This document shows, piece after piece, positions 1,398-29,100 of a stretch of DNA of 32,000 bases. The DNA is taken from positions 5,010,001 to 5,042,000 of the forward strand of contig NC_010296.1 of NCBI RefSeq assembly GCF_000010625.1, written 5' to 3'. The stretch comes from Microcystis aeruginosa NIES-843. Lineage in GTDB: Bacteria; Cyanobacteriota; Cyanobacteriia; Cyanobacteriales; Microcystaceae. The stretch's first letter is position 1. The number at the start of each line of letters is the position of its first letter. The translations under genes and the position numbers were made by a program. Under the pieces are notes generated by a model. That model did not search any database, was not told the origin of the DNA, and was given only the letters and a program-made list of their open reading frames with translations.

Positions 1398-1423
1398 AAA
1401 ACATAGTTTATTAGCACAGAGCA

Positions 1424-4899: not shown

Positions 4900-4902
4900 T
4901 TT

Positions 4903-4948: not shown

Positions 4949-5152
4949 GAGAAGTCAGGAGTCAGTCCCGATGAAAAAATTTTCACCCCCACAGATGAAA
5001 GAGGTTTCTTTCCCTACACCCCACACCCTACACCCTCTTTCCAGTCAGGAGACAGGAGAGAATTTTCAAGGAAAAAGCCAAAAAAAGGACAGTAAAGTAA
5101 AAATTTGCCTATTCCCCGTTCTCTATTCCCTGTTTCCTGTTCCCTTTTCTAA

Positions 5153-5190
5153 CTGATAGCTGAATGCTGATGGCTGATAGCTAATAGCTG
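5153..5190. repeat. Degenerate heptamer array CTGATAG/CTGAATG/CTGATGG/CTGATAG/CTAATAG, inverse partner of 4903-4948
   Basis: The reverse complement of CAGTTAT, phased as CTGATAA, differs from these units mainly by A->G. The array ends 22 nt before the rpoC2 ATG. Confidence 0.75.
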
Positions 5191-5212
5191 TTTACTTGTT
5201 ACCCGGATCGAG

Positions 5213-8200: not shown

Positions 8201-9217
8201 GCCTGTGTCCTGGCACGCAAGCCGGGAGTTTGTCAAGTGGAGTACCAAGATTCTGAGATCGTCGATATTAAGGTGGTCGAGGATGACGGCACGATCAGTG
8301 AATATCCGCTTTTAGGCAGTCAAAACCCTCTGGTGAGCGATAATCAGCGTATTGATGTGGGTCAGGCGTTAACCGATGGTCAGGCTAATCCCCACGAGAT
8401 TTTAGAGGTGTTCTTTAATTATTATGTGGATAGCCTGGGCAGTTACGAGGCAGCCCTGAAAGCCTTGGAAAAAACCCAGATGTTCCTCGTTGATCAGGTA
8501 CAGTCGGTTTACCAATCCCAAGGGATCGATATTGCCGATAAACATATTGAAGTGATCGTGCGTCAGATGACCTCTAAGGTGCGGATCGATGACGGCGGCG
8601 ATACCAGTATGTTACCTGGGGAATTGTTGGAACTGCGACAGGTGGAGACGGTAAACGAAGCCATGTCGATCACCGGTGGGGCGGCAGCTAAATATACGCC
8701 TGTACTACTGGGAATCACCAAAGCTTCCTTGAATACCGATAGCTTTATCAGTGCCGCCTCCTTCCAAGAAACCACCCGCGTCCTCACCGAAGCGGCGATC
8801 GAAGGCAAGTCCGACTGGTTACGGGGTCTCAAGGAAAACGTGATTATCGGTCGTCTGATTCCGGCGGGTACTGGCTTCAATTCCCACGAAAACACGGCGG
8901 GGATCAGTGATTACACCCCCCCAGAGGAGGAATATAACTACAACAATCGTAGCTATTACGCTCCCCCCGGCGGCCTCGGCTTGCCTCCTCGTCCCGGTTT
9001 CGGCGATAGTAGTGAGGATAGCGATATGATTCTTGACGATCAAACCGCTCGCGCCTACGCTGAGGGTGATGTGGTCGATTTAGAGGATGATGAAATGGCT
9101 TTCCTCTCCTCCCGCGGCAGCAGTCGCTTTAGTCGCCAACCCATCAGCGATCGCTGGTCAGAAGCTGATGAGGAAGGGGAGGAGGACGATTTCGAGGAGG
9201 ATTACGAAGAAGAATAA
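5213..9217 (+). CDS. rpoC2: DNA-directed RNA polymerase subunit beta' (cyanobacterial split C-terminal part)
   Basis: The N-terminus aligns to the start of cyanobacterial RpoC2 ([56 protein letters not shown]). It has a large internal lineage-specific insertion, then [39 protein letters not shown] and an acidic tail. 1334 aa. Confidence 0.97.
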
Positions 9218-10571: not shown

Positions 10572-10749
10572 AAGGCAGCCATACCTAATATCTTATCATT
10601 AGAACTCTTGCATAAATCAAAAAATTTTCCGCAAATGCAGGTAAAAGGGTTGCATATTATAGAATATAGGGTTAAGGGTTAAAATTTCCCCTTTCCCCCT
10701 TCCCCAATTTCTGCAAGAAGTCTATTCTAGTCAATTAGAGGCACAATTA

Positions 10750-10921
10750 GGGTTGGCTGAAAAAGTCTTTCCTGGCGGCAGGGTGTGGGGGTTTACCGAT
10801 TTTCAGGGAAAAAGTACCTGAATTTCCCCCCCCCTGATCACTCCTAGGCCTGGCACTTTTGGAGCTCAAAAAAGTCTAAAAGTCTTAGCCAACAAGGTTT
10901 TTAGATTTATTCAGCCAGCCC
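10750..10921. mobile_element. MITE copy B (same family as 9436-9634, inverted, with an internal deletion)
   Basis: GGGTTGGCTGAAAAAG ... TTATTCAGCCAGCCC. Flanked by cAATTA / TAATTA. Internal blocks are shared with copies A and C (GGGTGTGGGG, TTTTCAGGGAAAAAGT, CTGATCACTCC, AAAAAGTCTAAAAGTCTTA). Confidence 0.8.
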
Positions 10922-11170
10922 TAATTAGGGGTTTCTGAGCAGCATTTTGGGCGGGCCGATCGGCCGAACCAATTCCCCTCACCATCCCCGCCAAGATGAC
11001 CGACTTATTTGTTTAATTTCTGTAATTTTCGGCTTTCAAGGGGGAAAACTAAAATTAGAATGGGGAGGGTGCCTTAAAATTGCTGTTTTGACGTATAATC
11101 ACCTCAATAAAATTTAGAAGCTCCTAGAGTTGATAGTTTTCAACATTTCTGTGAGGAAAATGTATTTATT

Positions 11171-11932
11171 ATGAGTTCAATTATTGAAATCGGCGACCAC
11201 AAAATTAGCGATTCAGCGGTCTTGCCTCTTTTGGCAAAATATGGTATGTTACCCCAGTTATTCCGGGAAGTAATTATCGAGCAAGCGATTGCCGATATCA
11301 CCTGCAATCCCGAAGAAAGAAACGCCGCCTATTCCCGTTTCTATCAAAATAATCAAATTGCCAACGATGAACAAATGAAATCTTGGTTACGACAAAACGG
11401 GATGGATTCCGAACAACTAGAATATCTAATTCTTCGGGACATTAAACTGGAAAAATTTAAACAGGAGACTTGGGATAACAAAGTAGAATCCTACTTCTTG
11501 CAAGTCAAAAATCAATTGGATAAGGTGGTTTATTCCCTGATTCGGACAAAAAATATCGGCATTGCCCAAGAACTATTTTTCCGGATACAGGATCGAGAAA
11601 ATAGCTTCGCTGAACTAGCCAAAAAATACTCCCAAGGAGCAGAAGCAGAAACCGGAGGACTAATCGGACCTGTGGAACTGAGCACTCCCCATCCCCAGAT
11701 TGGGCAAATTCTCAAAGCAAGTAAACCGGGGCAACTGTGGCCACCGACGCAAGTGGGAGAATGGGTCGTAATTGTCCGGTTAGAAAAATACTTATCCTGT
11801 GAACTGGATCCTCCCACCCGTCAACGCTTACGGAATGATTTATTCCAACAATGGTTAATGACTCAAATGCAAACAGTGAAATTTATCTCCGAATCAACCC
11901 CAGTCAATAGCGAGCAGGTATCGATTATATAG
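11171..11932 (+). CDS. Parvulin/PpiC-type peptidyl-prolyl cis-trans isomerase-like protein
   Basis: The C-terminal half (AQELFFRIQDRENSFAELAKKYSQGAEAETGGLIGPVE ... GEWVVIVRLEKY) looks like a PpiC rotamase domain. No obvious signal peptide. First gene of the export cluster. Confidence 0.7.
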   Translation: MSSIIEIGDHKISDSAVLPLLAKYGMLPQLFREVIIEQAIADITCNPEERNAAYSRFYQNNQIANDEQMKSWLRQNGMDSEQLEYLILRDIKLEKFKQETWDNKVESYFLQVKNQLDKVVYSLIRTKNIGIAQELFFRIQDRENSFAELAKKYSQGAEAETGGLIGPVELSTPHPQIGQILKASKPGQLWPPTQVGEWVVIVRLEKYLSCELDPPTRQRLRNDLFQQWLMTQMQTVKFISESTPVNSEQVSII

Positions 11933-12007
11933 CATCCCTTGCCAAGCTGGGTAAACCCAGTCTTTTCGCTTAATTATTTGCCAACTTAGTCAATTTTCGC
12001 CTAGCTA

Positions 12008-14977
12008 ATGAGTTACACCACTTTAGATTTTACCGCCTTTCTGGAGACTGTACAGCCCTTCGATCGCCTGCCCGTCGAGGTTAGACGTTCCCTCGGCCAG
12101 AAATTACAACCCTTTCGCTATGAGATGGGCAATGCGATACTCAAGTGCGATCGCTTACCCTCCCACCTCGTCCTTCTCTACGAGGGAGAGGCCAGACTTT
12201 TGGGTTACGATGCTAGGGTTAACAATCCGCTGCCGGTCACTTTGGCTAAATTACAGCCGGGGGATTTATTCGGGTGGATGAGTCTTCTGCGCGCTACCCC
12301 CTGTGAAACGGTTATCGCTTCTTCGGAAGTCACGATCTGTTTAACCTTAAAACAAGAGGATTTTTGGTCTTTAATCAATAATTACCCCGAATTTAAGGAA
12401 CATTTCTTTAAAGAAACCTCGATCGCTGAAGTTTATGCTCTCCTAGGCTCCTATCTTAATCAACAGGCCTGGGGTGGGGGAGACCTGAAAGAAATTGCTC
12501 AGGCTCTTTTAAACAAAGCTTGTGTGTCCTACAACCAGATTAACGATGATTATCTCTGGTTAGTCAGCGAAAATACCGATAATTATCCTATCGGCACAGT
12601 TATCACCCAGAACAATCCGACTAACACGCGCTTATTAGGTCTTTCCTCCGACCAGTTAGACAAGTTCTTGACAGTGGAAACCGAAGCGGCTGCGGAAACA
12701 GAAACGGATGATATCTGGGAAACCCAAGTCATTAAGGGAAATAAACCCACCCAGGTATTAGATATCCCCCAAGGAAGAATAAGCGACATCACCAGCGATA
12801 TCGACGTTGAAAAAACTGTCGAGAAAAACCGGAAATCCTATCCCTTTTTCGGGGGAAAAACGGAACTAGAGGCGGTGAGTGCCTGTTTTCAGATGCTCTG
12901 CAAATATTTTAATATCCCCTTTCGCAAGGACGTGATCCAACGCATCCTAGGAGATCAACTGCAAAGAACTGGCAGCCTTTCCCTGCCTCTGTGTGGGGCT
13001 GTGGCCGAGGTAGTGGGACTCCATAGCCAATTAGTACCCCTAAATGCTTCTTCCTTGCCCAATATCAACCCTCCTGCCCTAATTCGCTGGCAAGACACCA
13101 TCGTTATCCTCTACGAAATTAATCAACGGGAAACCACGATCGCTGTTCCCCAAAGGGGGATAATTAAACGCAAAACCAGCGAATTTCTGGAATTTTGGGA
13201 CGAAAAAGGGGAAGTAATTCTGCTCAAACCCACCAAACACACCCAGCAACAGCGTTTTGGCCTATCATGGTTTTGGCCTTCTGTCAAGAAACATAAACGA
13301 GTCTTAATAGAAGTTTTTATCGCTTCTTTCTTCGTGCAGTTATTTGCCCTGGCCAATCCCTTGATGATTCAGGTGATCATCGATAAAGTGATCGTGCAGA
13401 ATAGCCCGGAAACCTTGAATACCCTCGGGGTTTTCCTGTTAGTAATTGCCGTTTTTGAGGGAATTTTAACCTTTTTGAGAACATCCCTTTTTGTCGATAC
13501 CACTAATCGCATCGACATGACCCTCGGTTCAGAAATTATCGATCACCTGCTGCGCTTACCCCTGAAATACTTTGAACGGCGGCCAGTGGGTGAAATTTCG
13601 ACAAGAATCAACGAATTAGAGAATATTCGGCAGTTTTTAACAGGTACAGCCCTAACGGTGGTGTTAGATGCCATTTTCTCGGTTATCTACATCGTGGTTA
13701 TGTTGATCTATAGCCCGATTCTAACCGTTTGGGCCCTGGGAGTCGTGCCGATTTTAGTTCTCTCCACAGCTATTTTCGCACCGATCGTGCGGCGACAACT
13801 GCGAGCAAAAGCCGAACGAAACGCCGAAACCCAATCCTATCTAGTGGAGGTAATGACGGGAATTCAAACGGTGAAAGCACAGAATATCGAATTGCGTTCC
13901 CGTTGGCAGTGGCAAGAACGTTATGCTCGCTATGTGGCCGAAGGTTTTCAAACGGTAATGACCTCAACTTTGGCCGGTTCCTTTAGTCACTTCTTTAACC
14001 AATTATCGGGTTTATTAGTGCTATGGGTGGGAGCAGCCCTAGTTTTAGACGGAAAACTCACTCTTGGTCAATTAATTGCCTTCCGGATTATCGCTTCCTA
14101 CGTTACCTCGCCGATTCTGCGTTTGACCCAACTCTGGCAAAACTTCCAAGAAACTGGCTTATCCCTGGAAAGATTAGCCGATATCGTCGATACTCCCCAA
14201 GAAGCGGAACTCGATCGCCAAAACATCCCTATGCCCTTAATTAAAGGCACCGTCACCTACGAAAACCTCGCTTTCCGCTTCAATCCCCACGGACCCCTGC
14301 AACTATACAACGTCAATTTAGAATTCCCCGCCGGCACTTTTGTCGCTTTGGTGGGGGAAAGTGGCGCTGGGAAAAGTACCATTACTAAATTGTTAGCCCG
14401 TCTCTACGAACCAGAATCGGGACGGATTCTCATCGATGGCTACGATATCAACAAAGTGGAACTCTATTCCCTCCGTCGTCAAATCGGCATGGTTCCCCAA
14501 GAAACCCTATTATTTGACGGTACGGTACAGGAAAATATCGCCCTGACTAACCCCGATGCGACTGTGGAGGAAATTGTCTCGGCAGCGAAAACGGCGGCGG
14601 CCCACGAATTTATTATGACCCTGCCCAATGGCTATAATACCCGCGTCGGTGAACGGGGGGCATCCCTATCGGGGGGACAACGACAACGGGTTGCGATCGC
14701 TCGTTCCGTCCTGCAAAAACCGCAAATTCTCATTCTTGATGAGGCCACCAGCGCCCTCGACTATAACACCGAACGGCAAGTGTGTCTGAATCTCAAGGAA
14801 GTTTTCAAGGATCATACGGTCTTTTTTATTACCCATCGTTTAGCTTCGATCAAATCCGCCGATATTATTGTCATGATGGATAAAGGGACAGTAGCGGAGG
14901 AAGGCACCCACGAGGAATTAATGGCCAAAAAAGGCCTTTACTATACCCTCTATAAACAACAGGATTCGCAAATCTAG
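12008..14977 (+). CDS. ABC exporter: cNMP-binding-like domain + C39-like domain + 6-TM ABC membrane domain + ATPase (type I secretion / bacteriocin-exporter family)
   Basis: Walker A GESGAGKST, signature LSGGQRQRVAIAR and Walker B ILILDEATSALD. A TM region runs from about aa 440. The N-terminal CAP_ED-like fold covers aa ~10-130 and a C39-like segment covers aa ~280-410. Confidence 0.9.
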   Translation: MSYTTLDFTAFLETVQPFDRLPVEVRRSLGQKLQPFRYEMGNAILKCDRLPSHLVLLYEGEARLLGYDARVNNPLPVTLAKLQPGDLFGWMSLLRATPCETVIASSEVTICLTLKQEDFWSLINNYPEFKEHFFKETSIAEVYALLGSYLNQQAWGGGDLKEIAQALLNKACVSYNQINDDYLWLVSENTDNYPIGTVITQNNPTNTRLLGLSSDQLDKFLTVETEAAAETETDDIWETQVIKGNKPTQVLDIPQGRISDITSDIDVEKTVEKNRKSYPFFGGKTELEAVSACFQMLCKYFNIPFRKDVIQRILGDQLQRTGSLSLPLCGAVAEVVGLHSQLVPLNASSLPNINPPALIRWQDTIVILYEINQRETTIAVPQRGIIKRKTSEFLEFWDEKGEVILLKPTKHTQQQRFGLSWFWPSVKKHKRVLIEVFIASFFVQLFALANPLMIQVIIDKVIVQNSPETLNTLGVFLLVIAVFEGILTFLRTSLFVDTTNRIDMTLGSEIIDHLLRLPLKYFERRPVGEISTRINELENIRQFLTGTALTVVLDAIFSVIYIVVMLIYSPILTVWALGVVPILVLSTAIFAPIVRRQLRAKAERNAETQSYLVEVMTGIQTVKAQNIELRSRWQWQERYARYVAEGFQTVMTSTLAGSFSHFFNQLSGLLVLWVGAALVLDGKLTLGQLIAFRIIASYVTSPILRLTQLWQNFQETGLSLERLADIVDTPQEAELDRQNIPMPLIKGTVTYENLAFRFNPHGPLQLYNVNLEFPAGTFVALVGESGAGKSTITKLLARLYEPESGRILIDGYDINKVELYSLRRQIGMVPQETLLFDGTVQENIALTNPDATVEEIVSAAKTAAAHEFIMTLPNGYNTRVGERGASLSGGQRQRVAIARSVLQKPQILILDEATSALDYNTERQVCLNLKEVFKDHTVFFITHRLASIKSADIIVMMDKGTVAEEGTHEELMAKKGLYYTLYKQQDSQI

Positions 14978-14984
14978 TCAGTCA

Positions 14985-15139
14985 GGGAACAGGGATTAGG
15001 GGATAGGGGATAGGGAAATGGGGAAATGGGGAAATGGGGAAGTTTCAACTAATACCCCAAAACCCCAACACCCCACACCCCACACCCCACACCCCACACC
15101 CCACACCCTACACCCACGAAAAACTTTTTCAGCAAACCC
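14985..15139. repeat. G-tract / (CCCCACA)x5 composite fused to a solo MITE end (GAAAAACTTTTTCAGCAAACCC)
   Basis: GGGGAAATGGGGAAATGGGGAAATGGGG, then CCCCACA x5, then a terminus nearly identical to the right end of MITE copy A, followed by TAAATA. Fills the ABC-hlyD spacer. Confidence 0.8.
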
Positions 15140-15158
15140 TAAATATAGGAGAATCCCC

Positions 15159-16928
15159 ATGAACGGTAATTCTAACAACGGTCAAAAGGGCAACGGCAAC
15201 GCTAAAAGCGATGAACTGACCCAAGCGGGTAAAAACGTGGCTACTACCACGAAAAATAAAAGTATTACCCCTTCTTTACCCACTTTCAGCCCACCGGAAC
15301 AATCGGTGATCTTGAAACAATCACCCATTTGGTCGCGGACGATTATCTGGACATTAATGAGTGTCACCACTGCCGCTTTAATTTGGTCGGCGTTCGCCAA
15401 AATCGAGCAGGTGGTGGGCGCCCAAGGACAACTTAAACCCCAGGGGAAAGTGCAAGAAGTACAAGCACCGGTGAATGGGGTAGTACAGTTCGTGAAAGTG
15501 AAAGACGGCGATCGAGTTAACAAAGGTGATGTACTGGTTTTAATGGATTCCAGTGCCTCGCAAGTGCAGTTAGAATCCTTGAGAAAAATTCGCACCAGTG
15601 CTGAGAAGGAAAATCAATTCTATCGTCTCTTAATGGCGCAGGATCTGACACCGGCAGCAGTGGAAAGTTCGATCGCTCAATTAAAATTACCGAGTGAAAT
15701 CGCCGATTTAGCCCGTAATCGTGCCGCTTTGGTGACAGAAAATCAACTTTATCAAGCACAGGTCAGTGAAGGTGCTTCTAGCTCTGCTTTACAAGGGGAT
15801 GAATTAGCTCGTTTAGGGGCTGCTCGACGGGAGGCCAATTCTCGACAAGCGGCCGCTAGATTGGAAATGGAACAACTAGAAAAACAATTGGCCCAAACTA
15901 GGGTACAGTTGGCCGATGCCCGCTCGCAATTAATCAAAGATCGCTTAGTCTTAGAAGAAATTAAGACTCGTAATGCCAATTCGATGAAACAGGGCCAAGA
16001 AAGCTTGGATATCGAGCGTAATATTCTTAAGGATATTGAACCCTTGGGGGATGAAGGAGCGATCGCCCGTTATCAGATTAATAAGCAAAAACAATCGGTA
16101 ACCGATCGCCAGAATGAATTACAGCAGCAAGAGGCTAATGGCAAAATCGATCGAGAAAAACAAGAGAAAGAAGTACAAACCCGCATCGCCGAAATTTCCC
16201 GCCTGGAACAGGAAGAAAAGCGTTATTTCCTGTTGATCTCCCAAGCGCAAGAAAAGCTGATTAATACCACGGTAATCACGGAAAAAGATGTGCGCGATAA
16301 AATGGCGGACAATTACAAACGGATCGCTGAAATCGATAGTCAGATCAGTCGCATTATCATTGATAACAACAAGCGCATTGCCGAACTAGACAGTCAAATT
16401 AGTCAAGCACAACAGACCATTAAATATCAAAAAATTACCGCCCCCATCGATGGTGTGGTCTTTGATCTCAAGGCCCGGCCCGGGTTTGTTCCCCAACCAA
16501 GTCAAGCGGAAGCATTATTAAAACTTGTTCCCGATGGCTGTCCCACCGAGGTGAAAGATGCCGCTAAAGGTTGTTTAGTGGCAGAGGTGGACGTGACTAA
16601 CCAAGACATCGGTTTTGTGCGCGTGGGACAAAAAGCCGATATTCGCATTGATTCCTTTTCCTACAGTGAATACGGCGATATTAAGGGAGAAGTAATCTCG
16701 ATCGGTTCCGATGCTTTACCTCCCGACGAAAATCACCGTTTTTATCGGTTCCCCGTCCGGGTACGCTTGAACAGTCAAGAGTTAGTTTTGAAAAATCAAT
16801 CCACTCTACCGCTGCAATCGGGGATGTCCGTGAGTGTCAACATCAAAGTCAATGAAAATCGCACCGTTTTGGGACTATTTACCGATATGTTCAATAAACA
16901 GGTGGATACTCTCAAACAAGTCCGTTAA
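15159..16928 (+). CDS. HlyD-family type I secretion membrane-fusion (periplasmic adaptor) protein
   Basis: One N-terminal TM helix ([23 protein letters not shown]), a lipoyl-like hairpin ([29 protein letters not shown] ... [12 protein letters not shown]), a long coiled coil and a C-terminal beta-barrel. ATG 15159 has AGGAG 8 nt upstream. The track start at 15018 lies inside the repeat. Confidence 0.88.
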
Positions 16929-19859: not shown

Positions 19860-20030
19860 AATTGACGATTTTTTTGACATCCTCACCGCCGTAAACGGAC
19901 GGTGATTCCCAAACCTCACGATTTAGGTTTCTGCTTCTTTCCCTTGCGGGGTTCCGCACCTGCCTTAACAGATTTACTCTGTTCTGGTCTTATGGTCGCT
20001 CTACAGACTGACACCGCAAGCCCTGCGGCC
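19860..20030 (-). ncRNA. Putative omega-RNA (reRNA) scaffold of the TnpB element; boundaries guessed
   Basis: In characterised TnpB systems the guide RNA scaffold overlaps the 3' end of tnpB and runs to the right end. The conserved hairpin at 19883-19905 lies where the terminal stem is expected. No covariance model was run. Confidence 0.3.
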
Positions 20031-21185
20031 AAAATATTTTTACTGGCGTTAATATCTCGGTCATGGTGTGTCCCACAGTCTGGACAGTCCCATTCTCGAA
20101 TATTTAACGGCATTTTCTCAGCAATATACCCGCAATTACTACACCTTTTAGAGCTAGGAAACCATCTATCTATTTCGATGTAATTTCTGCCGTACCAACG
20201 GCATTTATAGGCTAATTGTCGGGTGATTTCTCCCCAGCTAACGTCAGATATTGCCTGAGATAATTTCGGGTTTTTGACCATATTCTTGACGGCTAAATTC
20301 TCAACCACAATCGTTTGGTTTTCACGAACTAATTGAGTGGTTAGCTTGTGTAAATGGTCTTTTCTGTTATCGGTGATTCGAGCGTGAATCTTGGCTACTT
20401 TGATTCTCGCTTTTTCCCGATTTTTTGACCCTTTCTGTTTTCGAGAAAGACTTTTAGATGCTCTTCGCAGTCTCCGATAATGCTTTTTAAAATGCTCAGG
20501 ATTAGATACTTTGTCACCATCGCTGGTAATGACAAGGCTACTAATTCCTAAGTCAATTCCAATGGCTTTATCTGTTACTGGTAATGGCTTAATCGTTGGG
20601 TCATCAAATCTTATTGAGATATGCCAACGTCCTGAAGGATGTAATCTGACTGTTACTGTGCTTGGTTCACAGCTTTCTGGGATGTGTCTTGACCATCGAA
20701 TAGGTAAAGGTTCTGTGCATTTAGCTAAATAGATTTGTCTGTCTTTAATTGTAAAAGCAGATTTGGTAAATTCGGCACTTCCTCCCTGATGTTTTTTCTT
20801 AAAGTTAGGATACTTAGTACGACCAGCAAAGAAATTAGTGAAAGCTGTTTGTAAATGTCTTAACCCTTGTTGTAAGGGTACACAGCTTACTTCATTGAGA
20901 AAGTTTAATTCTTCTTGCTTTTTCCAATCGGTTAGCATTGAAGAAGTTTGAGCGTAGCCTACTCTTTCTTGTCTTTCGTACCATGCTTGTGTTCTGACAT
21001 GGAGAGCTTTATTGTAAACTAATCTTACACAGCCCAAAGTGCGCCGCAATAGCGACTCTTGTTCGGGTGTGGGGTAAAATCGAAACGAATAGGCTTTTTC
21101 CATACCTCACATTTTAGCATATATTTCGTAAACGATGCTCATATTTAACAGTAAAGCCGTCGTAGAACGACGGGGTTTCAGACCC
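19870..21185 (-). mobile_element. IS200/IS605-family tnpA-less (IS1341-like) element carrying tnpB; ends approximate
   Basis: The tnpB ORF is flanked by subterminal hairpins: CCGTCGT-AGA-ACGACGG at 21157-21173 (left-end side) and TCACCG(C)CCG-TAAA-CGG(A)CGGTGA at 19883-19905 (right-end side). There are no inverted terminal repeats, as expected for this family. Confidence 0.7.
19916..21103 (-). CDS. tnpB: TnpB (OrfB) RNA-guided endonuclease, apparently intact
   Basis: 395 aa. N-terminus MEKAYSFRFYPTPEQ, RuvC-I AIGIDLGISS, RuvC-II TIVVENLAVKNM, zinc finger CSNCG...CPDCG and RuvC-III HDRDINASKNI. Confidence 0.9.
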   Translation of the reverse strand: MEKAYSFRFYPTPEQESLLRRTLGCVRLVYNKALHVRTQAWYERQERVGYAQTSSMLTDWKKQEELNFLNEVSCVPLQQGLRHLQTAFTNFFAGRTKYPNFKKKHQGGSAEFTKSAFTIKDRQIYLAKCTEPLPIRWSRHIPESCEPSTVTVRLHPSGRWHISIRFDDPTIKPLPVTDKAIGIDLGISSLVITSDGDKVSNPEHFKKHYRRLRRASKSLSRKQKGSKNREKARIKVAKIHARITDNRKDHLHKLTTQLVRENQTIVVENLAVKNMVKNPKLSQAISDVSWGEITRQLAYKCRWYGRNYIEIDRWFPSSKRCSNCGYIAEKMPLNIREWDCPDCGTHHDRDINASKNILAAGLAVSVCRATIRPEQSKSVKAGAEPRKGKKQKPKS

Positions 21186-21331
21186 AAATTTTCGATGAAG
21201 GAGGGGCGGCTTTTATGGCTGACGGTTATGCCAGAGCGAGGCAAGGATTTGGTGTTTGTATTGGACTCGGTGGGCCAGGTGTGACCAACAGGGTGACGGC
21301 GATCGCATCCGCACTGAGCGATACCGACTAG
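21182..21331 (+). pseudogene. Remnant of a thiamine-diphosphate-dependent enzyme gene (acetolactate-synthase-like N-terminal Pyr domain)
   Basis: Translation ...IFDEGGAAFMADGYARARQGFGVCIGLGGPGVTNRVTAIASALSDTD* matches the conserved HE-x-gA-x-MAdGYAR-x-G-x-GVC-x-GPG-x-TN-x-IA block of ThDP enzymes. Only about 50 codons are present, with no N-terminus and no PP domain. Confidence 0.65.
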
Positions 21332-21411
21332 GGGGCGAAATTACAACCACAAGGCACATCCTTGGCAATAAAGTGTATAAGTTAATTTGGGCTGCAACTA
21401 TAGGATAATTA

Positions 21412-21623
21412 GGGTCTGCTGAAAAAGTTTTTCCTAGGGGCAGGGTGTAGGGTGTGGGGTGTGGGGTGTGGGGTTTTACCGATTTTGAGGGGGTCAATTA
21501 CCTAATTTTCAGGGAAAAAGTCCCTGAATTTACCCCTGATCACTCCCATATCTGGTACTTTTGGATTTCAAAAAAGTCTAAAAGTCTTATCCAGCAAGGT
21601 TTTTAGATTTATTCAGCCGGCCA
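21412..21623. mobile_element. MITE copy C (full length, same orientation as copy B)
   Basis: GGGTCTGCTGAAAAAGTTTTTCC ... TTTATTCAGCCGGCCA, flanked by TAATTA (21406-21411 and 21624-21629). It ends 38 bp upstream of the GH13 start codon. Confidence 0.8.
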
Positions 21624-21661
21624 TAATTAGGAAGAAAAAGTTGAGGTTATAAAGAATAATC

Positions 21662-23551
21662 ATGTCTAGAACGCTAGTTGAAGCAGCAGCACCTCAAGAA
21701 CTGAGGTTGGCAGACTTAAAGCCCCGTGGACGGGTTAATCCAAGTCCTGCAACCTGGAGAGACCAGATTTTATATTTTCTCCTACCAGATCGCTTCAGCG
21801 ATGGTGGAGAAGGTGGTCGAACACTATTCGATCGCTCCAATCCATCGACATTCAGGAAGAATGATAAAAAACAATGGATGGCTGGCGGCAAAATATTTCA
21901 GGGAGGAACGATCGCCGGAATAAAAAGTAAATTGGACTACCTGCAAAATTTAGGCGTTACCACTCTTTGGATTGCCCCTGTTTGCAAACAAAGAAAAGAT
22001 TTAGAAACTTATCACGGTTACGGAATTCAAAATTTCTTAGAAATCGATCCTCGTTTTGGTACTCGTCAAGAATTGAGAGATTTAGTAGATGCTGCCCACA
22101 CCAAGGGTATGTATGTTCTATTAGATATTATCTACAATCATTCGGGAAATAACTGGTTTTACAATGTAGGTGGAAGACCAAAAACTACTGAAAAGTACCG
22201 TTTTGCTCCACCTTATCCAGTTCATGGGTGGCGTTCTGATACTGGAAGTAGTATTCCTATTTCAAGCATTTCTCCCTCTGATTTAGAAGACGGTGTTTGG
22301 CCCCAAGAATTCCAAGATTTAGACTGGTATACCAAAGCTGGAGAGATTTGCAAATGGGATCCCGAGGGTTGGGAAGAGCCGCTTCATCCAGATAATGAAT
22401 TTCGACGAGGTGATTTTTCCGACCTTAAAGACCTCAATCTCAATAGAAGTGATGTTTTAAATGCTGTTATCAAAGTCTATCAATACTGGATTGCTCTCAG
22501 CGATTGTGATGGATTTCGGATTGATACTGTCAAGCACGTTTCTTGGGAAGCATCCCGTAACTTCTGTGGTGCAATTCACGAATATGCCGAGTCGATTGGC
22601 AAGGAAAACTTCTTGCTTCTTGGTGAGGTTACTGGTGGTGCTGATATGGCGCGCAACTATCTAGAAATCTTTGGTCGCAATCTAGATGCTGTTTTAGATA
22701 TCGGCGAACCACCACAAAAACTAGCAGGAATGACTAAAGGGTTTAGAGAACCAAGCGATTTTTTTAATCAGTTTGCAGGTCATGATTCTCTTGGTAGTCA
22801 TCGTGAAACAGGACGCTATCACGTCTCAATTTTAGATGACCACGATATGGTGGGACGTGGTAAAAATCGATTTGCAGCTAATAATCCTAATTTAGAACAA
22901 GTTGCCCATGCAGTAGGTGTGCAGTTGACTACTCTAGGCATACCCTGTATTTATTACGGTACTGAGCAAGCATTTGATGGTAAAGAATCTTATCACGACT
23001 TTAGTATCGAACCACGCGATAGCAACGGCAAAATTCCTTTCGATGATCGCTATATTCGAGAGTCCATGTTTGGTGGAACTTTTGGAGCTTTTGAAACCGA
23101 AAATTGCCATTTCTTTGATGAAAATCATCCTACTTATTTACGTATTGCCGCGATCGCTCTTATCCGTAATGGAGATAACAAAATCGGTCTAGCTTTACGT
23201 CGCGGTCGTCAGTATTTAAGGGAAACATCTATCTTAGGAAGACCTTTTAATATACCAGCAAGAGAAGAGTTGGTAGCCTGGTCTCGCATTCTCTTTGACC
23301 AAGAGGTTCTGATAGCAGTTAATACTAATGGGACTGCGGTCAGAGGTGCAGATATAACTGTAGATGGCTCTTTAAGTCCTATTGGAGGACAAATGACCTA
23401 TCTTTACAGGAGCGACTGGGCTGATAGTCAATTACATACCCCACCCACAGATCAAACTGTAAACATTATTAGTAATGGCAGTCGTGCCACTGTCAAAATC
23501 GATTTACCGCCTGCTGGAATGGCTATCTTAACCCACTTTCCGTCAAATTAA
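21662..23551 (+). CDS. GH13 (alpha-amylase family) glycoside hydrolase, cytoplasmic
   Basis: All four GH13 regions are present: I VLLDIIYNHSG, II DGFRIDTVKHV (nucleophile Asp), III LLGEVTGG (acid/base Glu), IV ILDDHDM. The N-terminus has LPDRFSDG. No signal peptide. Confidence 0.88.
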   Translation: MSRTLVEAAAPQELRLADLKPRGRVNPSPATWRDQILYFLLPDRFSDGGEGGRTLFDRSNPSTFRKNDKKQWMAGGKIFQGGTIAGIKSKLDYLQNLGVTTLWIAPVCKQRKDLETYHGYGIQNFLEIDPRFGTRQELRDLVDAAHTKGMYVLLDIIYNHSGNNWFYNVGGRPKTTEKYRFAPPYPVHGWRSDTGSSIPISSISPSDLEDGVWPQEFQDLDWYTKAGEICKWDPEGWEEPLHPDNEFRRGDFSDLKDLNLNRSDVLNAVIKVYQYWIALSDCDGFRIDTVKHVSWEASRNFCGAIHEYAESIGKENFLLLGEVTGGADMARNYLEIFGRNLDAVLDIGEPPQKLAGMTKGFREPSDFFNQFAGHDSLGSHRETGRYHVSILDDHDMVGRGKNRFAANNPNLEQVAHAVGVQLTTLGIPCIYYGTEQAFDGKESYHDFSIEPRDSNGKIPFDDRYIRESMFGGTFGAFETENCHFFDENHPTYLRIAAIALIRNGDNKIGLALRRGRQYLRETSILGRPFNIPAREELVAWSRILFDQEVLIAVNTNGTAVRGADITVDGSLSPIGGQMTYLYRSDWADSQLHTPPTDQTVNIISNGSRATVKIDLPPAGMAILTHFPSN

Positions 23552-23627
23552 AGGAGAATAGAAAGGAAAATAAAAATATATTACGCTCCCAAAGTCTATT
23601 GTTCACCTACCAAAGAGTCCATAAATT

Positions 23628-26126
23628 ATGTCTCAGAATGAGTCCAACGTTAACAATCAAGACACGTCATTTGCTTTCGGTACTGATATTTTAGGTCGCT
23701 ACTTCTGTAACACCCTAGAGGAGGCAGCAAAAAGCAATGAAGCCAAACCATTTGATGTGGTGGTGATCGGATCGGGAATGTACGGTTCGTATATTGCGAG
23801 TAAGCTCTACCACTGGAGTAAAAATAAAAAGCAACTTGGAGAGGAAAAAAGGTTAAAAATCCTCATCCTTGAAGCTGGTCCTTACATCGTACACGAGCAT
23901 ATCGAAAACCTTCCACCTAAAACTGGCATTTTTGATGAAAATATCGATCACCCACACATGAAGTCCCCATATGTATGTCATGTTCGTCGAGCAGGGATGG
24001 GTGAGGAGTTTTTTGGGGAAGTAAAAAAGCATAGCTACTGTGTTGGGGGTAAATCGTTGACGTGGGGGAAGTGGTCGCCACGTCTTACCGATGAAGATTT
24101 AGCGTCTTGGCCAAAAGAGCTTAGAGATTTCCTATATGAGAACTATAAAGAGGTAGAAGACGAGACAGGTGTTTCTGACTACTCAGACCTTATAAATGGG
24201 ACTCTTTTTAAGGGTCTGAAGAAATTTCTAGAGGAAAAGCTAAATTCACCAGATCTAAATCATCTCAAACTTAAAGATCCACCTGTGGCTGTCGCGGCAA
24301 ATAGCACCCGATCTGGAGTGTATAGCCCTGATGCTTTCAGTAGTCTTGGTAGGCTCTTACAAAATATACGGATTGAATCCCAGTACGATGATGTGCCGAA
24401 GCCCAATGATCCCATTTGGAAATCTAAATCAATCTTTCTTGTTCCGAATACGTTTGTATACAAGCTTGAAACCGATAAGGGTTCTGTCTCTCGCATACAT
24501 GTAGTCGATAGCAACTCTCAAAAAACAAGCTCTTTTGAACTTTTAAGCAATTGCGAGGTGATCTTGGCTGGTACGGCTGTAGAATCTACCAGGCTTGTAC
24601 TCAACTCATTTCCCAGATCGGACTCTTTAAAAGAGAACCAAGAGTTAATCGGGCGTAATCTGATGGGGCATCTGTTCAGTGCGGTAACAGTTCGGATTAA
24701 GCGAGAAGCACTTGGATTCCTTAAGGAGGATGTTCTTGAGTCTGCCCTTTACCATCTACAGGGCTACAGCGAACGTTTCAAGAAAAGTTACCATTTCCAA
24801 TTCCTCTGTAGCTCTGATCCTGGCTTTGATGTTTTCACGACTCTCTATAAAATGTTTTACGATTATGAGGAGCTTGTCGATACATTAGGGTCGCAGGATC
24901 AGGAATGGGTCACTCTATTGATATTCACGGTTTCTGAGGTGCAAGGAAAGCCAAAGGCTCCACTTTACACAGAAGGCTCGAATTGGATGAATTTAAGTAA
25001 GGATCAAATCGAAGTATTCGGTGAAGTGAAATATGCTAAGCCCTACTTGAAATGGGAAAGTTCACCAGAAGATGAGGAATTCTGGGACGAGGTTCATTCA
25101 ACTTTATTTGACTTTCTTTCATCACTGGTATCCTTTGGTGCCATCGAATACCAAGATCCGAATGATGCTAAAAAATGGACACCAGAGAAGCCGACACAAT
25201 TCGACCCATACCAAAAGACTGAGGCATTTTGGAATTCACGCCATGAATCGGGTACGCTATGGATGGGTGAAAATCCTGATGAATCTGTAACAGATCTAGA
25301 CGGCAAATTACACCACATTCAAAATGTTTACTGCGCTGACCAAGCGATTTTTCCTACTGTTGGTTCTGCCAATCCTGTACTCACAGGACTAACCCTATGC
25401 CGTAAGATTGCGGATTCAATTATTAAACGCCACATCTCATCTGAATTTGTCGAGGAAGAAGACGCGGATTCAATTATTGAACGCCACATCTCATCTAAAT
25501 TTGTCGAGGAAGAAGACTTTGAAATTCTTTATCGAGGTGACTTCAAATCAGATGGTTGGAAATTTTTGGAATCAAATAAATCAGGTGCCAAAAACTTCTT
25601 TGATATTAAAGATAGTTTGCCTATATTGGGTGCGGGAGTTTCCGATAAAGATGTCAAAATGGGTGCTCTTTGTTATACACGCAAAAAATTCAAAAATTTC
25701 ATCTTAAAGTTAGAATGGAAAGCATTTGCCATCGAAGCAAACTCTGGTATTTTTCTAAGGAGGCCAGAACCTAAAGGTGAATCTTTCTATGACAATCTCA
25801 TCGAAGTTCAAATTGACGAGACTGCCTATGACTACAAAAAAAAGATATACGGAAGTCCTTTACATAAAACAGGTGCAGTCTATGATATATTTCCTGCTCA
25901 ACGATGGGCTACTAAGGTGATTAGTCCTCGAAATTCAGAGCATCCTGGATATTGGAACAGCTGTGAAATCACCGTACAGGATAATACGATTGAGGTTAAA
26001 CTCAATGACAAAATAGTTAGTGCGGGAACTTTTTCTGAATCCGTGAACCTCGAAGGTTTCATTGCCTTGCAATGTCATACAGAGGTCGTTCAGTTTCGTA
26101 ATATTCGGATCAAGGAACAACCCTAA
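23628..26126 (+). CDS. Fusion protein: pyranose-oxidase-like GMC FAD oxidoreductase (aa ~40-600) + DUF1080 / 3-keto-disaccharide-hydrolase-like domain (aa ~640-832)
   Basis: FAD Rossmann motif FDVVVIGSGMYGSYIASKL...LEAGP. The GMC C-terminal block HESGTLWMGENPDESVTDLDGKLHHIQNVYCADQAIFPTVGSANPVLTGLTL resembles pyranose 2-oxidase. The C-terminal domain carries the DUF1080 pattern (FILKLEWK...NSGIFLRR, IEVQIDE, KTGAVYDI, YWNSCEITVQDNTIEVKLND, GFIALQCH..VQFRNIRIKE). Confidence 0.8.
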   Translation: MSQNESNVNNQDTSFAFGTDILGRYFCNTLEEAAKSNEAKPFDVVVIGSGMYGSYIASKLYHWSKNKKQLGEEKRLKILILEAGPYIVHEHIENLPPKTGIFDENIDHPHMKSPYVCHVRRAGMGEEFFGEVKKHSYCVGGKSLTWGKWSPRLTDEDLASWPKELRDFLYENYKEVEDETGVSDYSDLINGTLFKGLKKFLEEKLNSPDLNHLKLKDPPVAVAANSTRSGVYSPDAFSSLGRLLQNIRIESQYDDVPKPNDPIWKSKSIFLVPNTFVYKLETDKGSVSRIHVVDSNSQKTSSFELLSNCEVILAGTAVESTRLVLNSFPRSDSLKENQELIGRNLMGHLFSAVTVRIKREALGFLKEDVLESALYHLQGYSERFKKSYHFQFLCSSDPGFDVFTTLYKMFYDYEELVDTLGSQDQEWVTLLIFTVSEVQGKPKAPLYTEGSNWMNLSKDQIEVFGEVKYAKPYLKWESSPEDEEFWDEVHSTLFDFLSSLVSFGAIEYQDPNDAKKWTPEKPTQFDPYQKTEAFWNSRHESGTLWMGENPDESVTDLDGKLHHIQNVYCADQAIFPTVGSANPVLTGLTLCRKIADSIIKRHISSEFVEEEDADSIIERHISSKFVEEEDFEILYRGDFKSDGWKFLESNKSGAKNFFDIKDSLPILGAGVSDKDVKMGALCYTRKKFKNFILKLEWKAFAIEANSGIFLRRPEPKGESFYDNLIEVQIDETAYDYKKKIYGSPLHKTGAVYDIFPAQRWATKVISPRNSEHPGYWNSCEITVQDNTIEVKLNDKIVSAGTFSESVNLEGFIALQCHTEVVQFRNIRIKEQP
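25410..25517 (+). repeat. 54-bp in-frame tandem duplication (2 copies, 2 mismatches) in the interdomain linker
   Basis: GCGGATTCAATTATT(A/G)AACGCCACATCTCATCT(G/A)AATTTGTCGAGGAAGAAGAC x2 encodes ADSIIKRHISSEFVEEED / ADSIIERHISSKFVEEED. Confidence 0.95.
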
Positions 26127-26167
26127 AATAATCAGAACAAAAAGAAAGATGGATAGATCATCGAAGA

Positions 26168-29100
26168 TCAATCACAAAGATGGCGATCATTTTCACTCAC
26201 ATTGGGATTTGCCCTTAGATAATCATGCACCCAATTACAACCGTACATCAATGGATTAAGGGTAAGAACCTGCTCCTTGTTCCACAAAATGACTGTCTTG
26301 TCTTCATTTGCTGAGGCAATAGTTTGACCATCAGGACTGAAGGCTATTGACCAAAAGCGACCGCTATAGCCATTCAGAGTCGTCAATAAAGTGCCATCTG
26401 GTTTCCAAAGCTTGATCGTCTTGTCCCAGCTTGCTGAGGCAATGGTCTGACCATCGGGACTGAAGGCAACAGAGAAAACGACAGCACTATGACCTTTAAG
26501 GGTTGTCAATAAAGTACCATCCAGTTTCCAAAGCTTGATCGTGTTATCTGCACTTGCCGAGGCAATCGTCTGACCATCGGGGCTGAATGCCAATCCATAA
26601 ACTTGAGCAGTATGTCCTATAAGTGTCTTTAGGAGAACAGGCACCTGATCTGGCTTCACTCTCCAGAGTTTTACGGTATTGTCTGCACTTGTGGAGGCGA
26701 TTGTCTGACCATCGGGACTGAATGCCACTCCAAGAACCGCCGCTTGATGTCCTCTCAAGGTGGCGAGGAGTTGGGGCGTTTTTTGCCCTACATTCCAGAG
26801 CTTGACAGTATTATCCCAGGCTGCGGAGGCAACTGTCTGACCGTCGGGACTAAAGGCAACTTCCCAAACCACTGCTTGATGTCCTCTCAGGGTGGCAAGT
26901 AATCGAGGCTTCCCTCTACCTAAGTTCCAGAGCTTGACGGTATTATCTGCACTTGCGGAGGCAAGCCTCTGACCATCGGGACTGAAGGCGACTCCATAAA
27001 CCTGAGCGGTGTGTCCGCTGAGAGTTGCGAGCAGAGTGCCATCTCGCTGCCAAAGTTTGACCGTTTTGTCATCACTGGTCGAAGCAATGGTCTGACCATC
27101 GGGGCTGAATGCCACTCCAATCACTACGCCACTATGCCCTGTCAGCCTTGTTAACAAAGGGCTTTTCAGCCTCCAAAGCTTGACCGTTTTGTCATCACTG
27201 GCCGAAGCAATGGTCTGACCATCGGGGCTAAATGTTACTCCCCAAACACGATCGCTATGCCCACTGAGAGTTGCAATCAAAGTACCATCCCGCTTCCAGA
27301 GCTTAACAGTCTTGTCCCAACTACCTGAAGCGAGAGTCTGACTATCGGGGCTGAATGCTACTCCAGCAATCACTTCACTATGTCCTGTAAGGGTTGCCAG
27401 TAGAGCCGGCATTTTCCCTGTTTCTAGTTTCCAGAGTTTGATCGTTTTGTCCCAACTGGCTGAAGCCAGCATCTGACCATCAGGGCTGAACGCTACTCCG
27501 TTGACAATATCAGTGTGACCTGTGAGAGTCGTAATCAAGGTGCCATCTCGCTTCCAAAGTTTTACTGTCTTATCGTCACTCGCCGAGGCCAGTATTTGAC
27601 CGTCAGGACTAAAGGCAACTCCATTCACCACAGCAGTGTGACCTGCTAGAGTTGCAATTAAAGTGCCATCCTGTTTCCAGATTTTTACCGTCTTATCATC
27701 ACTCGCTGAAGCCAGCATTTGACCATCGGGACTGAATGCCACTCCCCTCACACCATCGCGATGTCCTACAAGGGTCTTTAGCAAAACAGGTGTCTTGCCC
27801 GCTTCTAGTTTCCAGAGTTTGATGGTTTTGTCTGTACTACCCGAGGCAATCGTGTGACCATCAGGACTAAACACAGCTTGCCAAATTCGATCGCTGTGTC
27901 CGTTCAGAGTTGCAATTAGAGTACCGTCTCGCTTCCAGAGTTTGATGATTTTATCACGACCCGCTGAGACGAGTATGTTACCGTCGGGGCTGAAGGCGAC
28001 GCTTTTAACTTCGTCGCGATCCAATGACAAACGATTGTATTCAAGAACGCCATAAACTGCCTGCCGTAAGACGGAATCTACCTGAGTTTTAGTCTCAGCG
28101 TCTGTTCCTCCTGTCCTGGATAATTTTTGCCAGGCCCGAATGGCCTCAATCAACGCATCTAACTTATTATTGGAGACAAAAAGTGCTTCTGAGGACGCAG
28201 TGATGGCTTGGATCTCGCTACGCGCTGAATTCTGCCATTGCCCCCAAGCGACTCCTGCTAAGATTAAGGCCCCTAGCAAGCCACCTGTGAGTCCTGAGAT
28301 CGTTAACTTTCGCCTGCGCTTTTGGGATTTCAGGTCGCGATCGCGCAGTGCCACACTTTGCTCAATCAATTCGCGATCGCTCGAACTCAGTTCATCAGCT
28401 CGATTCAGATACCAATATTCTGCATCGGTCAGAGGTTTACCCCGCAACAATGCCCCTTCATCCTGATGGCTGCGCTCCCACTGGTAGCGGTTTGCCCGCA
28501 GTTGCTCTTGCCAGAGGCGAAACTCTCGATCGAGCTGCATCCAATTCCTGAGTCGTTTCCAGCCCCCAATTAATGCCTCGTGAACAATTTCTACGGTTTC
28601 TTCTCCTGTAGAATCGTTGCGGTTGGTCACCACTAAGCGAGAGGAGGCTAAACGCACTACCAAGTCCCAGTTTTCGGGCTGCACGTCTTCCCGTGTAGCA
28701 GTACGCCGGCTATCGTCTGTCCCGGCACCGGGCTGCACTAATTGGATAAATACCCGTTGCGCTCGCTGTCGATCCTCTTCGTTCAGTTGAGCGTATACGA
28801 ATTCTGCGTGATTGGCCAGCGCTGCTTCTACGCCGCCAATCTGGTCATAAGCCTGATTGGTTAGCCATCCATCTCGCTGGTTTGACCACAATTGCGTGAG
28901 GGCAAATTCCAACAAGGGCAAACGCCCTGGCTGCTCATTCATGGCATGGATCAGCTTCTGGATTAACCCATCCTCTAATTTCACTTGCATTTGGGCGGCG
29001 GGCTTGGCAATCGCGGCTGGCAATTCTTCCCGGTTCATCGGCCCCAAAACCTGAATGGCACCTTGCAAGGCATCACTCAAGGGGCGGTAAGCCAGGGCAT

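Follow-up and report, generated by a model that had tools for sequence, protein, structure and literature searches.

Glycosidic bonds can be cleaved not only by Koshland glycosidases but also by oxidation, elimination and hydration, a route that was recognised recently and is so far known only from sets of separate proteins, most of them periplasmic or secreted. In the gene clusters BT2156-2160 of B. thetaiotaomicron and AL of Alistipes (Nasseri, Withers et al., bioRxiv 10.1101/2024.03.25.586180; PDB 8tda, 8v31, 8rr2, 9fbe), the C3-OH is oxidised, the aglycone is expelled by 1,2-elimination, and the resulting 2-hydroxy-3-keto-glucal is hydrated, where the DUF1080 proteins BT2 and AL2 act as alpha-lyase and hydratase. 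In the present study, we analysed a window of 32,000 nucleotides from Microcystis aeruginosa NIES-843 (NC_010296.1, positions 5,010,001 to 5,042,000 of the forward strand), in which one gene encodes a GMC flavoenzyme and a DUF1080 domain in a single chain of 832 aa. The fusion is the commonest architecture of its GMC clade, and we discuss the protein as a candidate two-step glycoside-cleaving enzyme.

Three further systems are close to this logic. LacABC, a glucoside 3-dehydrogenase consisting of a GMC flavoprotein, a cytochrome c and a small subunit, has DUF1080 neighbours in Caulobacter, Pedobacter and other bacteria, and the two cooperate when lactose and salicin are used (Price et al. 2022, PMC9007349). 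In Agrobacterium, an FAD glycoside 3-dehydrogenase, an eliminase and a hydratase are separate proteins. Pyranose oxidases and glycoside 3-oxidases (POx/G3Ox), such as OPOx of Oscillatoria princeps (9fl2), PsG3Ox (7qf8/7qva) and the CarA-type enzymes, are followed by beta-eliminases of C- and O-glycosides (PMC10646112, PMC11650716, PMC10628242).

The open reading frame (ORF) that the initial annotation had described was recovered with all of its factual elements, and the positions of the fusion gene, its parts and its neighbours are given in Table 1. In the Pfam search, PF06439 (3keto-disac_hyd) matched aa 642-829 with 105.2 bits (E 5.7e-30; cut-off 26.8), and PF05199 (GMC_oxred_C) matched aa 472-588 with 60.2 bits (E 4.2e-16; cut-off 24.6); PF00732 (GMC_oxred_N) gave no match at E ≤ 0.01. 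A simple hydropathy analysis found neither a signal peptide nor a transmembrane segment (maximum KD19 = 1.2), in agreement with the single cytoplasmic chain described in the initial annotation. A full-length AlphaFold2 model built from the family alignment reached a pLDDT of 87.3 and a pTM of 0.91, with disorder confined to residues 1-19 and the duplicated linker (608-625); the pTM suggests a defined arrangement of the two domains.

Table 1. Positions of the fusion gene, its sequence features and its neighbours (window positions unless a locus is named).
Feature	Position	Strand	Remarks
3.7-kb segment (TnpB, TPP-enzyme gene remnant, GH13)	19868..23580		absent from M. novacekii locus
IS605-family TnpB	19916..21103	-	OrfB_IS605 and Cas12f1-like TNB (Pfam)
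GH13 alpha-amylase-family gene, 629 aa	21662..23551	+	PF00128, E 6.9e-49; haplotype-specific neighbour
GMC-DUF1080 fusion gene, 832 aa	23628..26126	+	ORF list, Pfam, protein-cluster search
FAD (ADP)-binding GxGxxG, G48-S-G50-M-Y-G53	23769..23786	+	beta1-alphaA of Rossmann fold; strand E44-47 and helix H51-65 in the model
GMC_oxred_C (PF05199), aa 472-588	25041..25391	+	holds His539 (nt 25242-25244) and Asn582 (nt 25371-25373)
In-frame tandem duplication, 2 x 54 bp, 52/54 identical (aa 595-612, 613-630)	25410..25517	+	Tandem Repeats Finder
DUF1080/PF06439 domain, aa 642-829, beta-jelly roll	25551..26114	+	Pfam, model; clade-B (Nostoc-type) origin
CHAT-nSTAND1-WD40 gene, 1583 aa	26168..30919	-	convergent to fusion
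CHAT-nSTAND1-WD40 gene at other loci	L001 4250-9001; L002 10426-15141; L011 3180-7895; L012 9716-14374; L013 9396-14132

The fusion gene is present in public genomes under automatic names only. The protein is identical or nearly so to M. aeruginosa WP_012267784.1/BAG05288.1 and M. viridis BBH40160.1, and proteins 99.5-100 % identical to it are encoded by several Microcystis assemblies, among them the complete genome AP019314.1. The public names are "family 16 glycoside hydrolase" (WP_012267784.1), "GMC oxidoreductase C-terminal domain-containing protein" (UniRef) and "unknown protein" (BBH40160.1). A regular-expression search for the catalytic motif of GH16, E-[ILV]-D-[IVAF]-[VILMF](0,1)-E, had no match anywhere in the fusion protein; the RefSeq/PGAP label is therefore wrong, and a GH16 identity was rejected. 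WP_012267784.1, WP_125730987.1 and their relatives carry the GH16 label from RefSeq/PGAP although most of each protein is a GMC flavoenzyme, which amounts to a systematic mis-annotation. The searchable literature yielded no account of the fusion, which the initial annotation did not recognise as characterised, or of the genes that accompany it.

Residue conservation was counted in an alignment of 84 fused relatives, which are 28-71 % identical. In the flavoenzyme half, G48 and G50 of the FAD-binding motif are kept in 84/84 sequences and G53 in 82/84, and E82, which follows the model strand E78-81, is kept in 83/84. The putative catalytic pair is H539 in RHESG (84/84) and N582 in GSANP (83/84), which align with the catalytic His and Asn segments of FAD-glucose dehydrogenase (FAD-GDH, 6a2u) and fructose dehydrogenase (FDH, 8xcm); H348 and H389 are also invariant (84/84). 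As judged from sequence and model, the N-terminal half is a divergent GMC FAD domain rather than a missing one, despite the null result for PF00732, because the fold alignment spans about 620-660 columns of GMC structures with a probability of 1.0 in the Foldseek search of the full model against the PDB.

The closest fold in this search was OPOx (9fl2, 5e-23), and fungal pyranose 2-oxidase (P2Ox), FDH (1.9e-21), PsG3Ox (7qva, 9e-21) and FAD-GDH (1.1e-20) followed within two orders of magnitude, all at identities of 13-18 %. When the family profile was compared with the solved GMC enzymes, the order was FAD-GDH (8e-22), OPOx (1e-19), HMF oxidase (3e-18), FDH (6e-18), PsG3Ox (3e-10) and fungal P2Ox (5e-8). 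The NCBIfam matches were weak, C-terminal and far under their cut-offs (choline dehydrogenase, MftG and pyranose oxidase); TIGR02462, the pyranose oxidase model, scored 23.4 bits against a cut-off of 544.9 and covered the C-terminal 60 aa only. The view that the flavoenzyme is closest to pyranose 2-oxidase and glycoside 3-oxidase is thus fair at the level of the fold, but FDH and FAD-GDH are essentially tied with them, and the TIGR02462 score lies far below its cut-off.

Two class assignments were tried and rejected. The flavinylated His is His125 of the G-I-H-W motif in OPOx (PMC11650716) and His167 in Trametes P2Ox. According to an alignment by motif inspection, the fusion protein has K-S-L-T145-W146 at this position, in a column that reads F56/Y15/T7/A3 in the family and in which His never occurs. 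On this ground and on the TIGR02462 score, the protein was rejected as a pyranose oxidase proper. The catalytic subunit of FAD-GDH (6a2u) carries a Cys cluster for a 3Fe-4S centre. In the GMC half, Cys residues occur at scattered positions (27, 117, 138, 309, 394, 569 and 591) and form no cluster of the 3Fe-4S type, and no gene for a cytochrome c or a Tat-signal small subunit lies adjacent, either in the window or at the related loci. A complex of the FAD-GDH, FDH or glucoside 3-dehydrogenase type was therefore rejected. The flavoenzyme belongs to a small, distinct and uncharacterised GMC clade, previously undescribed, within the sugar-oxidising neighbourhood of the superfamily.

The DUF1080 half was compared with BT2, whose conserved metal and active-site residues are E103, N134, E164, Q166, Y190, K245, Q273 and H275. 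The residues were mapped from the alignment with 3osd (BT2157), where BT2 numbering is the chain index + 25. The counterparts of N134, E164, Q166, Y190, Q273 and H275 are N705, E726, Q728, Y752, Q815 and H817, which are conserved in 82, 84, 83, 84, 84 and 79 of the 84 fused relatives, respectively. A model of the domain alone reached a pLDDT of 91.7. In the Foldseek search with this model, the top 18 structures were all DUF1080 proteins, including AL2 (8v31) and BT2 (8tda/8rr2/9fbe), where 8rr2 and 9fbe are recorded as "3-keto-glycoside eliminase/hydratase" complexes, and lectins and CBM66 trailed by 1e4-1e5. A profile search also matched 8tda across the whole domain (4e-21). The residue conservation suggests that both halves are under catalytic constraint in the fused relatives.

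The searches therefore bear out both domain calls of the initial annotation: a GMC flavoenzyme with an FAD GxGxxG motif and an active-site block, and a full C-terminal DUF1080 domain. The profile scores lie above the cut-offs for PF05199 and PF06439, the motif and the H539/N582 pair are present, and both assignments hold at the fold level in the AlphaFold models, with BT2/AL2 as the closest folds of the second domain. The supposed logic of oxidation followed by elimination or hydrolysis agrees with current knowledge of DUF1080 enzymes in its outline; the word hydrolysis does not stand, as these enzymes are 3-keto-glycoside 1,2-eliminase/hydratases and not hydrolases, with 3-keto-alpha-glucoside 1,2-lyase and glucal hydratase activities (bioRxiv 10.1101/2024.03.25.586180).

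Oxidation followed by elimination in one chain is the best reading of the fusion protein because six of the eight active-site residues of BT2 are near-invariant in the fused relatives. In the proposed mechanism, the N-terminal region of about 600 aa would act as an FAD-dependent GMC oxidoreductase using the His539/Asn582 pair, with neither a covalent-flavin His nor an Fe-S cluster. It would oxidise a hydroxyl group of a sugar, most likely the C3-OH of a glycoside, and the electrons would be taken up by O2, which would yield H2O2, or by an acceptor of the quinone type. The DUF1080 domain, with its active site coupled to that of the flavoenzyme, would then carry out the 1,2-(beta-)elimination, expelling the aglycone or leaving sugar, and would probably also hydrate the resulting 2-hydroxy-3-keto-glycal, as BT2 and AL2 do. 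We give about even chances to the reading that the protein is such a soluble, signal-less, single-chain enzyme that cleaves glycosides in two steps.

With regard to the described systems, the fusion protein shares with the BT/AL clusters the proposed stepwise logic, the DUF1080 fold and, as far as sequence and model tell, the six active-site residues. The BT/AL clusters use a separate NAD-dependent oxidant of the Gfo/Idh/MocA type (BT3/AL3), whereas the oxidant of the fusion protein is an FAD GMC enzyme in cis. BT2 is annotated as "probable secreted", whereas the fusion protein has no signal peptide and a much shortened K245 loop, and the TIM-barrel beta-lyase that belongs to the BT/AL clusters is not found near the fusion gene. 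As in LacABC, a GMC enzyme that would make a 3-keto-glycoside is coupled to DUF1080, and the FAD-GDH and FDH catalytic subunits are among the best profile matches of the fusion protein. However, LacABC is a membrane or periplasmic three-subunit dehydrogenase whose DUF1080 partners have signal peptides, while the fusion protein is one signal-less chain with no partner subunits. POx/G3Ox are among the closest folds, essentially tied with FDH and FAD-GDH, and are soluble GMC oxidases that act on the C3 of glycosides, or the C2 of sugars, with O2 to give H2O2, after which a separate eliminase cleaves the product. The fusion protein differs from them by its low identity and by T145 in place of the flavinylated His, and their eliminases are unfused TIM-barrel proteins, not DUF1080.

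The fusion is widespread. A word-indexed search returned 135 relatives, of which the majority carry both domains, from Microcystis, Leptolyngbyaceae, Nostoc, Acaryochloridaceae, Flavisolibacter, Arenibaculum, Roseomonas, Chthoniobacterales, Catenulispora, Gemmata and Isosphaeraceae, and the fusion extends over six or more phyla. A phmmer search with aa 1-612, exhaustive over 1.84 billion representatives, gave 105 clusters at E ≤ 1e-30, and scanning of metagenomes gave over 437 encoding stretches, mainly in soil samples. The architectures were counted among the best 150 representatives of the GMC half, 99 of which are near-full-length, i.e., at least 520 aa long; DUF1080 is carried by 53 of these 99. 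The fusion is therefore the commonest architecture of its GMC clade, is found in many phyla and is not an oddity, and its recurrence gives a Rosetta-stone argument for functional coupling of the two halves. The initial annotation was correct that two putative activities normally found in separate proteins are joined in one chain, but the fusion is not rare, and the pairing of GMC enzymes with DUF1080 was already known from separate periplasmic proteins. The fused, FAD-dependent and signal-less form is new, the kind of system is already known, and the family as a whole is sizeable, mis-annotated and apparently unstudied.

In a subclade, a Rieske [2Fe-2S] domain is nested in the GMC C-terminal domain, as at locus L017 (7001-9880), which encodes P0031 (959 aa; Rieske aa 562-633), and in P0311 and P0079. 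The insert sits in a variable loop that corresponds to aa ~505-530 of the window protein, just before the catalytic His, and would imply an internal electron-transfer route in these proteins.

The two halves of the window protein have different histories. In clade A (M. novacekii, L002, L011, L012 and L013), the identity to the window protein is 60-77 % in the GMC half and 33-44 % in the DUF1080 half. The relation is reversed in the Nostoc-type proteins (L004 and L014; 36 % and 61-65 %, respectively) and in the Rieske-type protein (L017; 32 % and 52 %). In the residue alignment, the fusion protein is identical to M. novacekii up to ...QNVYCADQAIFPTVGSANPVLTGLTL, and from ADSII(K/E)RH on it follows the clade-B/Rieske pattern (ARSIIERY, ADSIIQRY; FEILYRG-NFKADGW). 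At the nucleotide level, the homology to M. novacekii stops at 25423 and that to Nostoc starts at 25470. The identity pattern and the homology breakpoints therefore place the crossover in a block conserved in both clades (GSANPVxTGL). Directly 3' of it lies the 54-bp duplication (2.0 copies, 96 % identical by Tandem Repeats Finder), which encodes ADSIIKRHISSEFVEEED / ADSIIERHISSKFVEEED (aa 595-630), overlaps the last GMC helix and the acidic linker, and is disordered in the model; the recent duplication of the acidic linker that the initial annotation had pointed out is thus real and in frame. The fusion protein is chimeric, consisting of a clade-A flavoenzyme and a clade-B DUF1080 domain joined at the duplicated linker, and the Microcystis allele of 832 aa is the recombinant because the five clade-A lineages share an A-type DUF1080.

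A comparison of the fusion gene region (23581-26126) with the M. novacekii contig, a metagenome-assembled genome (L001 1700-4215), gave 84 % nucleotide identity in the GMC part, whereas the DUF1080 part was essentially unalignable as DNA; the flanks on either side of the gene are 95-97 % identical. Among Microcystis genomes the gene is a divergence hotspot, a pattern that points to recombination having replaced one allele with another.

The neighbourhoods were collected from exact-protein look-ups and one metagenome scan, while a single-protein scan of genome contigs gave M. novacekii only. The flanking ORFs of 98 loci were clustered without prior labels, recurrent clusters were annotated with Pfam, and lineages were defined as clusters at 70 % identity. 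A gene for a CHAT-nSTAND1-WD40 protein of about 1,570 aa lies directly downstream and convergent at all clade-A loci (14 loci in 5 clusters; Table 1). Its product is about 1,550-1,583 aa long, and the gap to the clade-A fusion gene is about 26-200 bp. It is the only neighbour kept at all clade-A fusion loci, the upstream neighbours being all different, and the N-terminal 900 aa of its product share 60-95 % identity among the loci, a value that tracks the GMC half. The adjacency could be a functional link or co-inherited synteny. A PADLOC scan for defence systems returned nothing for the fusion, a repeat model only for the CHAT-WD40 protein and a generic "GlgB" candidate model for the GH13 protein, and was not informative.

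Other clades have other neighbours. A peroxidase of the DyP type, about 650 aa long and with a pair of LysM repeats at its C-terminus, occurs at 9 loci in 5 clusters (L004 11087-13039, L014 9753-11711, L019, L020, L023, L024, L042, L048 and L080), mostly directly adjacent downstream on the same strand, where the partner is a fusion or a GMC-only relative. The protein has no signal peptide, and its GXXDG, proximal-His and RRG motifs are intact. This adjacency suggests a pair of an H2O2 producer and an H2O2 consumer and favours H2O2 production by at least some members of the family. In soil clades, the fusion gene is surrounded by ChrB (11 loci in 7 clusters), ChrA (8 in 5), a beta-propeller protein (9 in 5), DUF1259 (PF07485; 7 in 5) and a separate DUF1080 gene (5 in 4). 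The chromate-type loci come from soil metagenomes (L037, L039, L041, L047, L052, L054, L061, L062, L064, L071, L075, L076, L077 and L089). Their gene set resembles the chromate resistance determinant of Arthrobacter sp. FB24, in which chrA and chrB are accompanied by chrJ, chrK and chrL, whose products are a flavin oxidoreductase, a WD40 protein and an LppY/LpqO lipoprotein, respectively; the latter three genes are needed for resistance (PMC2751784). The fusion relatives occupy the oxidoreductase slot among ChrA, ChrB, the beta-propeller protein and DUF1259. However, ChrJ of FB24 is Mqo-like and not a GMC enzyme, FB24 has no DUF1080, and the chromate context is absent from the Microcystis window.

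In the window, the upstream neighbour of the fusion gene is a GH13 gene on the same strand, whose stop codon is 76 bp from the fusion ATG. In keeping with the initial annotation, which called this gene catalytically complete, the four GH13 conserved regions are present in its translation (DIIYNH, GFRIDTVKH, GEVTG and LDDHD) in addition to the PF00128 match. It is of the alpha-amylase type, and the PDB structures closest to it are amylases of Geobacillus and Anoxybacillus. The pair is a genuine Microcystis haplotype, recurring with identical proteins in many assemblies with or without the upstream TnpB. A consensus scan, which is weak evidence, found neither a terminator-like nor a plus-strand promoter-like site in the 76-bp gap; the scan of 21000-26400 performed no better than shuffles and supports only the statement that there is no obvious terminator in the gap. 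The two genes are probably, or at least plausibly, co-transcribed in the window haplotype, and the pairing is local rather than family-defining.

The GH13 gene lies on the 3.7-kb segment of Table 1, a clean indel, as positions 1699 and 1700 of the M. novacekii contig are contiguous where the window has 19868-23580. No GH13 gene stands beside the fusion in four other clade-A lineages or at the Nostoc-type, Arenibaculum, Chthoniobacterales and Rieske-type loci, nor at about 80 metagenomic loci with the sole exception of one GMC-only locus (L090), where it is 1.1 kb away. Besides M. novacekii, about 85 loci lack it. Adjacency is thus seen in 2/38 clusters at 70 % identity, i.e., one Microcystis haplotype and L090. 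The GH13 family (4593 matches at E ≤ 1e-30) is at least 10 times larger than the fusion clade, keeps 67-72 % identity between cyanobacteria and Nitrospirota, Chloroflexota and Methanosarcinales (archaea), and has orthologues that stand alone in Nostoc sp. 106C and one Manganitrophaceae genome.

Some further observations concern this segment and the rest of the window. A short remnant of a TPP_enzyme_N gene lies just upstream of the GH13 gene (about 21215-21331, plus strand). TnpB is found in the GH13 haplotypes L005, L006 and L009 and is absent from L007, L008 and L010, and another copy is located at 10272-10774 of L001. In Nostoc sp. 106C (L098), the GH13 orthologue (6001-7887, 72 % identity) has no fusion neighbour; a convergent Peptidase_C14-nSTAND1-WD40 gene (10705-13887) lies 2.8 kb from it with a group II intron reverse transcriptase in between, which echoes the STAND/WD40 neighbour in Microcystis. 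Elsewhere in the window, TatD, rpoB and rpoC2 (618-9217) lie upstream of a plus-strand pair (12008-16928) of an ABC exporter with N-terminal cNMP-binding and C39 peptidase domains (989 aa) and an HlyD-family protein (636 aa), a pair that looks like bacteriocin or peptide export.

Several observations weigh against the two-step reading. The C3 regiochemistry is read from the fused partner alone, and the best profile match among the solved GMC enzymes, FAD-GDH, is a C1 oxidiser. In the DUF1080 half, the equivalent of BT2 E103 is D673 in a variable column (E34/A22/S11/N6), and the loop of about 40 aa that holds K245 in BT2, where it contacts the 6-OH, has shrunk to about 12 aa, so that K245 is not alignable. 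DUF1080 is absent from 46 of the 99 near-full-length clade members, which indicates that the flavoenzyme can work alone; the exchange of DUF1080 modules between clades argues against a tightly co-evolved interface, the Rieske variants make some of the family look more like dehydrogenases than oxidases, and sugar transporters, kinases and other genes of the 3-keto pathway were found at none of the related loci. The match to a C1 oxidiser, the variable E103 column and the shortened K245 loop, the close relatives without the domain and the swapping of the domain, together with lectins and CBM66 as next-best structural neighbours, also fit a DUF1080 domain that is not catalytic at all but a ConA-like carbohydrate-binding or regulatory module, which targets or gates a flavoenzyme whose sole chemistry is the oxidation of, for example, a free sugar at C1 or C2 or an alcohol other than a sugar. 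We regard this explanation as unlikely, though it deserves to be kept in view: the six metal and active-site residues are kept at 94 % or more in sequences down to 28 % identity, which is unexpected for a mere binding module, and the characterised eliminase/hydratases outscore the lectins by 4-5 orders of magnitude. A dedicated alpha-glucoside pathway of two genes, as put forward in the initial annotation, in which the GH13 enzyme makes or trims the substrate and the fusion enzyme degrades it oxidatively, would fit the close same-strand arrangement, the recurrence of the pair, the alpha-anomer specificity of the lyase step in BT2 and the GH13 gene at the unrelated L090. The indel that lacks GH13 exactly at the M. 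novacekii site, its absence from the other clade-A lineages, clade B and the metagenomic loci, and a family that is far larger than the fusion clade and stands alone elsewhere speak against it. By synteny and distribution, GH13 was rejected as a dedicated partner; the pathway claim was not supported, the pairing being local at most, and we consider it the least probable of all the explanations discussed here.

A redox or oxidant-stress role, which could coexist with the two-step mechanism, is suggested by the peroxidase, chromate and STAND neighbours and by the lack of catabolic genes in every neighbourhood, which point away from a nutritional role. An internal glycoside would be burnt to supply H2O2 to the adjacent DyP peroxidase, or to provide oxidants, for example chromate, with electrons or a reductone-like 2-hydroxy-3-keto-glycal, as the likeness of the soil-clade gene set to the FB24 determinant invites. 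However, the evidence comes purely from gene context, the DyP, Chr, DUF1259 and beta-propeller partners are all absent from the Microcystis window, the contexts vary by clade, so that a single role may not exist, and the reductone idea is our own. We consider this role improbable, somewhat more so than a non-catalytic DUF1080 domain. More doubtful again, in our estimate, is the wider picture in which the protein is a self-contained intracellular "oxidative glycosidase" for redox chemistry, whose H2O2 and/or reductone-like glycal is used with DyP in the Nostoc-type clade and with chromate determinants in soil, where the Microcystis-type gene is genetically locked to a CHAT-STAND-WD40 death or conflict protein and the DUF1080 modules are exchangeable cassettes.

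If the two-step reading is correct, the fusion protein would be a compact single-chain FAD catalyst that cleaves glycosidic, possibly also thio- or C-glycosidic, bonds with only O2 or a quinone, and it would provide a Rosetta-stone confirmation that GMC 3-oxidoreductases and DUF1080 eliminases cooperate. The chimera of clade A and clade B shows that the modules can be exchanged in nature, a property of use in enzyme engineering. Besides bloom-forming Microcystis, the family includes members from Nostoc, Planctomycetes and abundant soil bacteria, and since its genes are accompanied by peroxidase, chromate-resistance and STAND/CHAT neighbours instead of sugar-utilisation genes, its physiological role may be unexpected.

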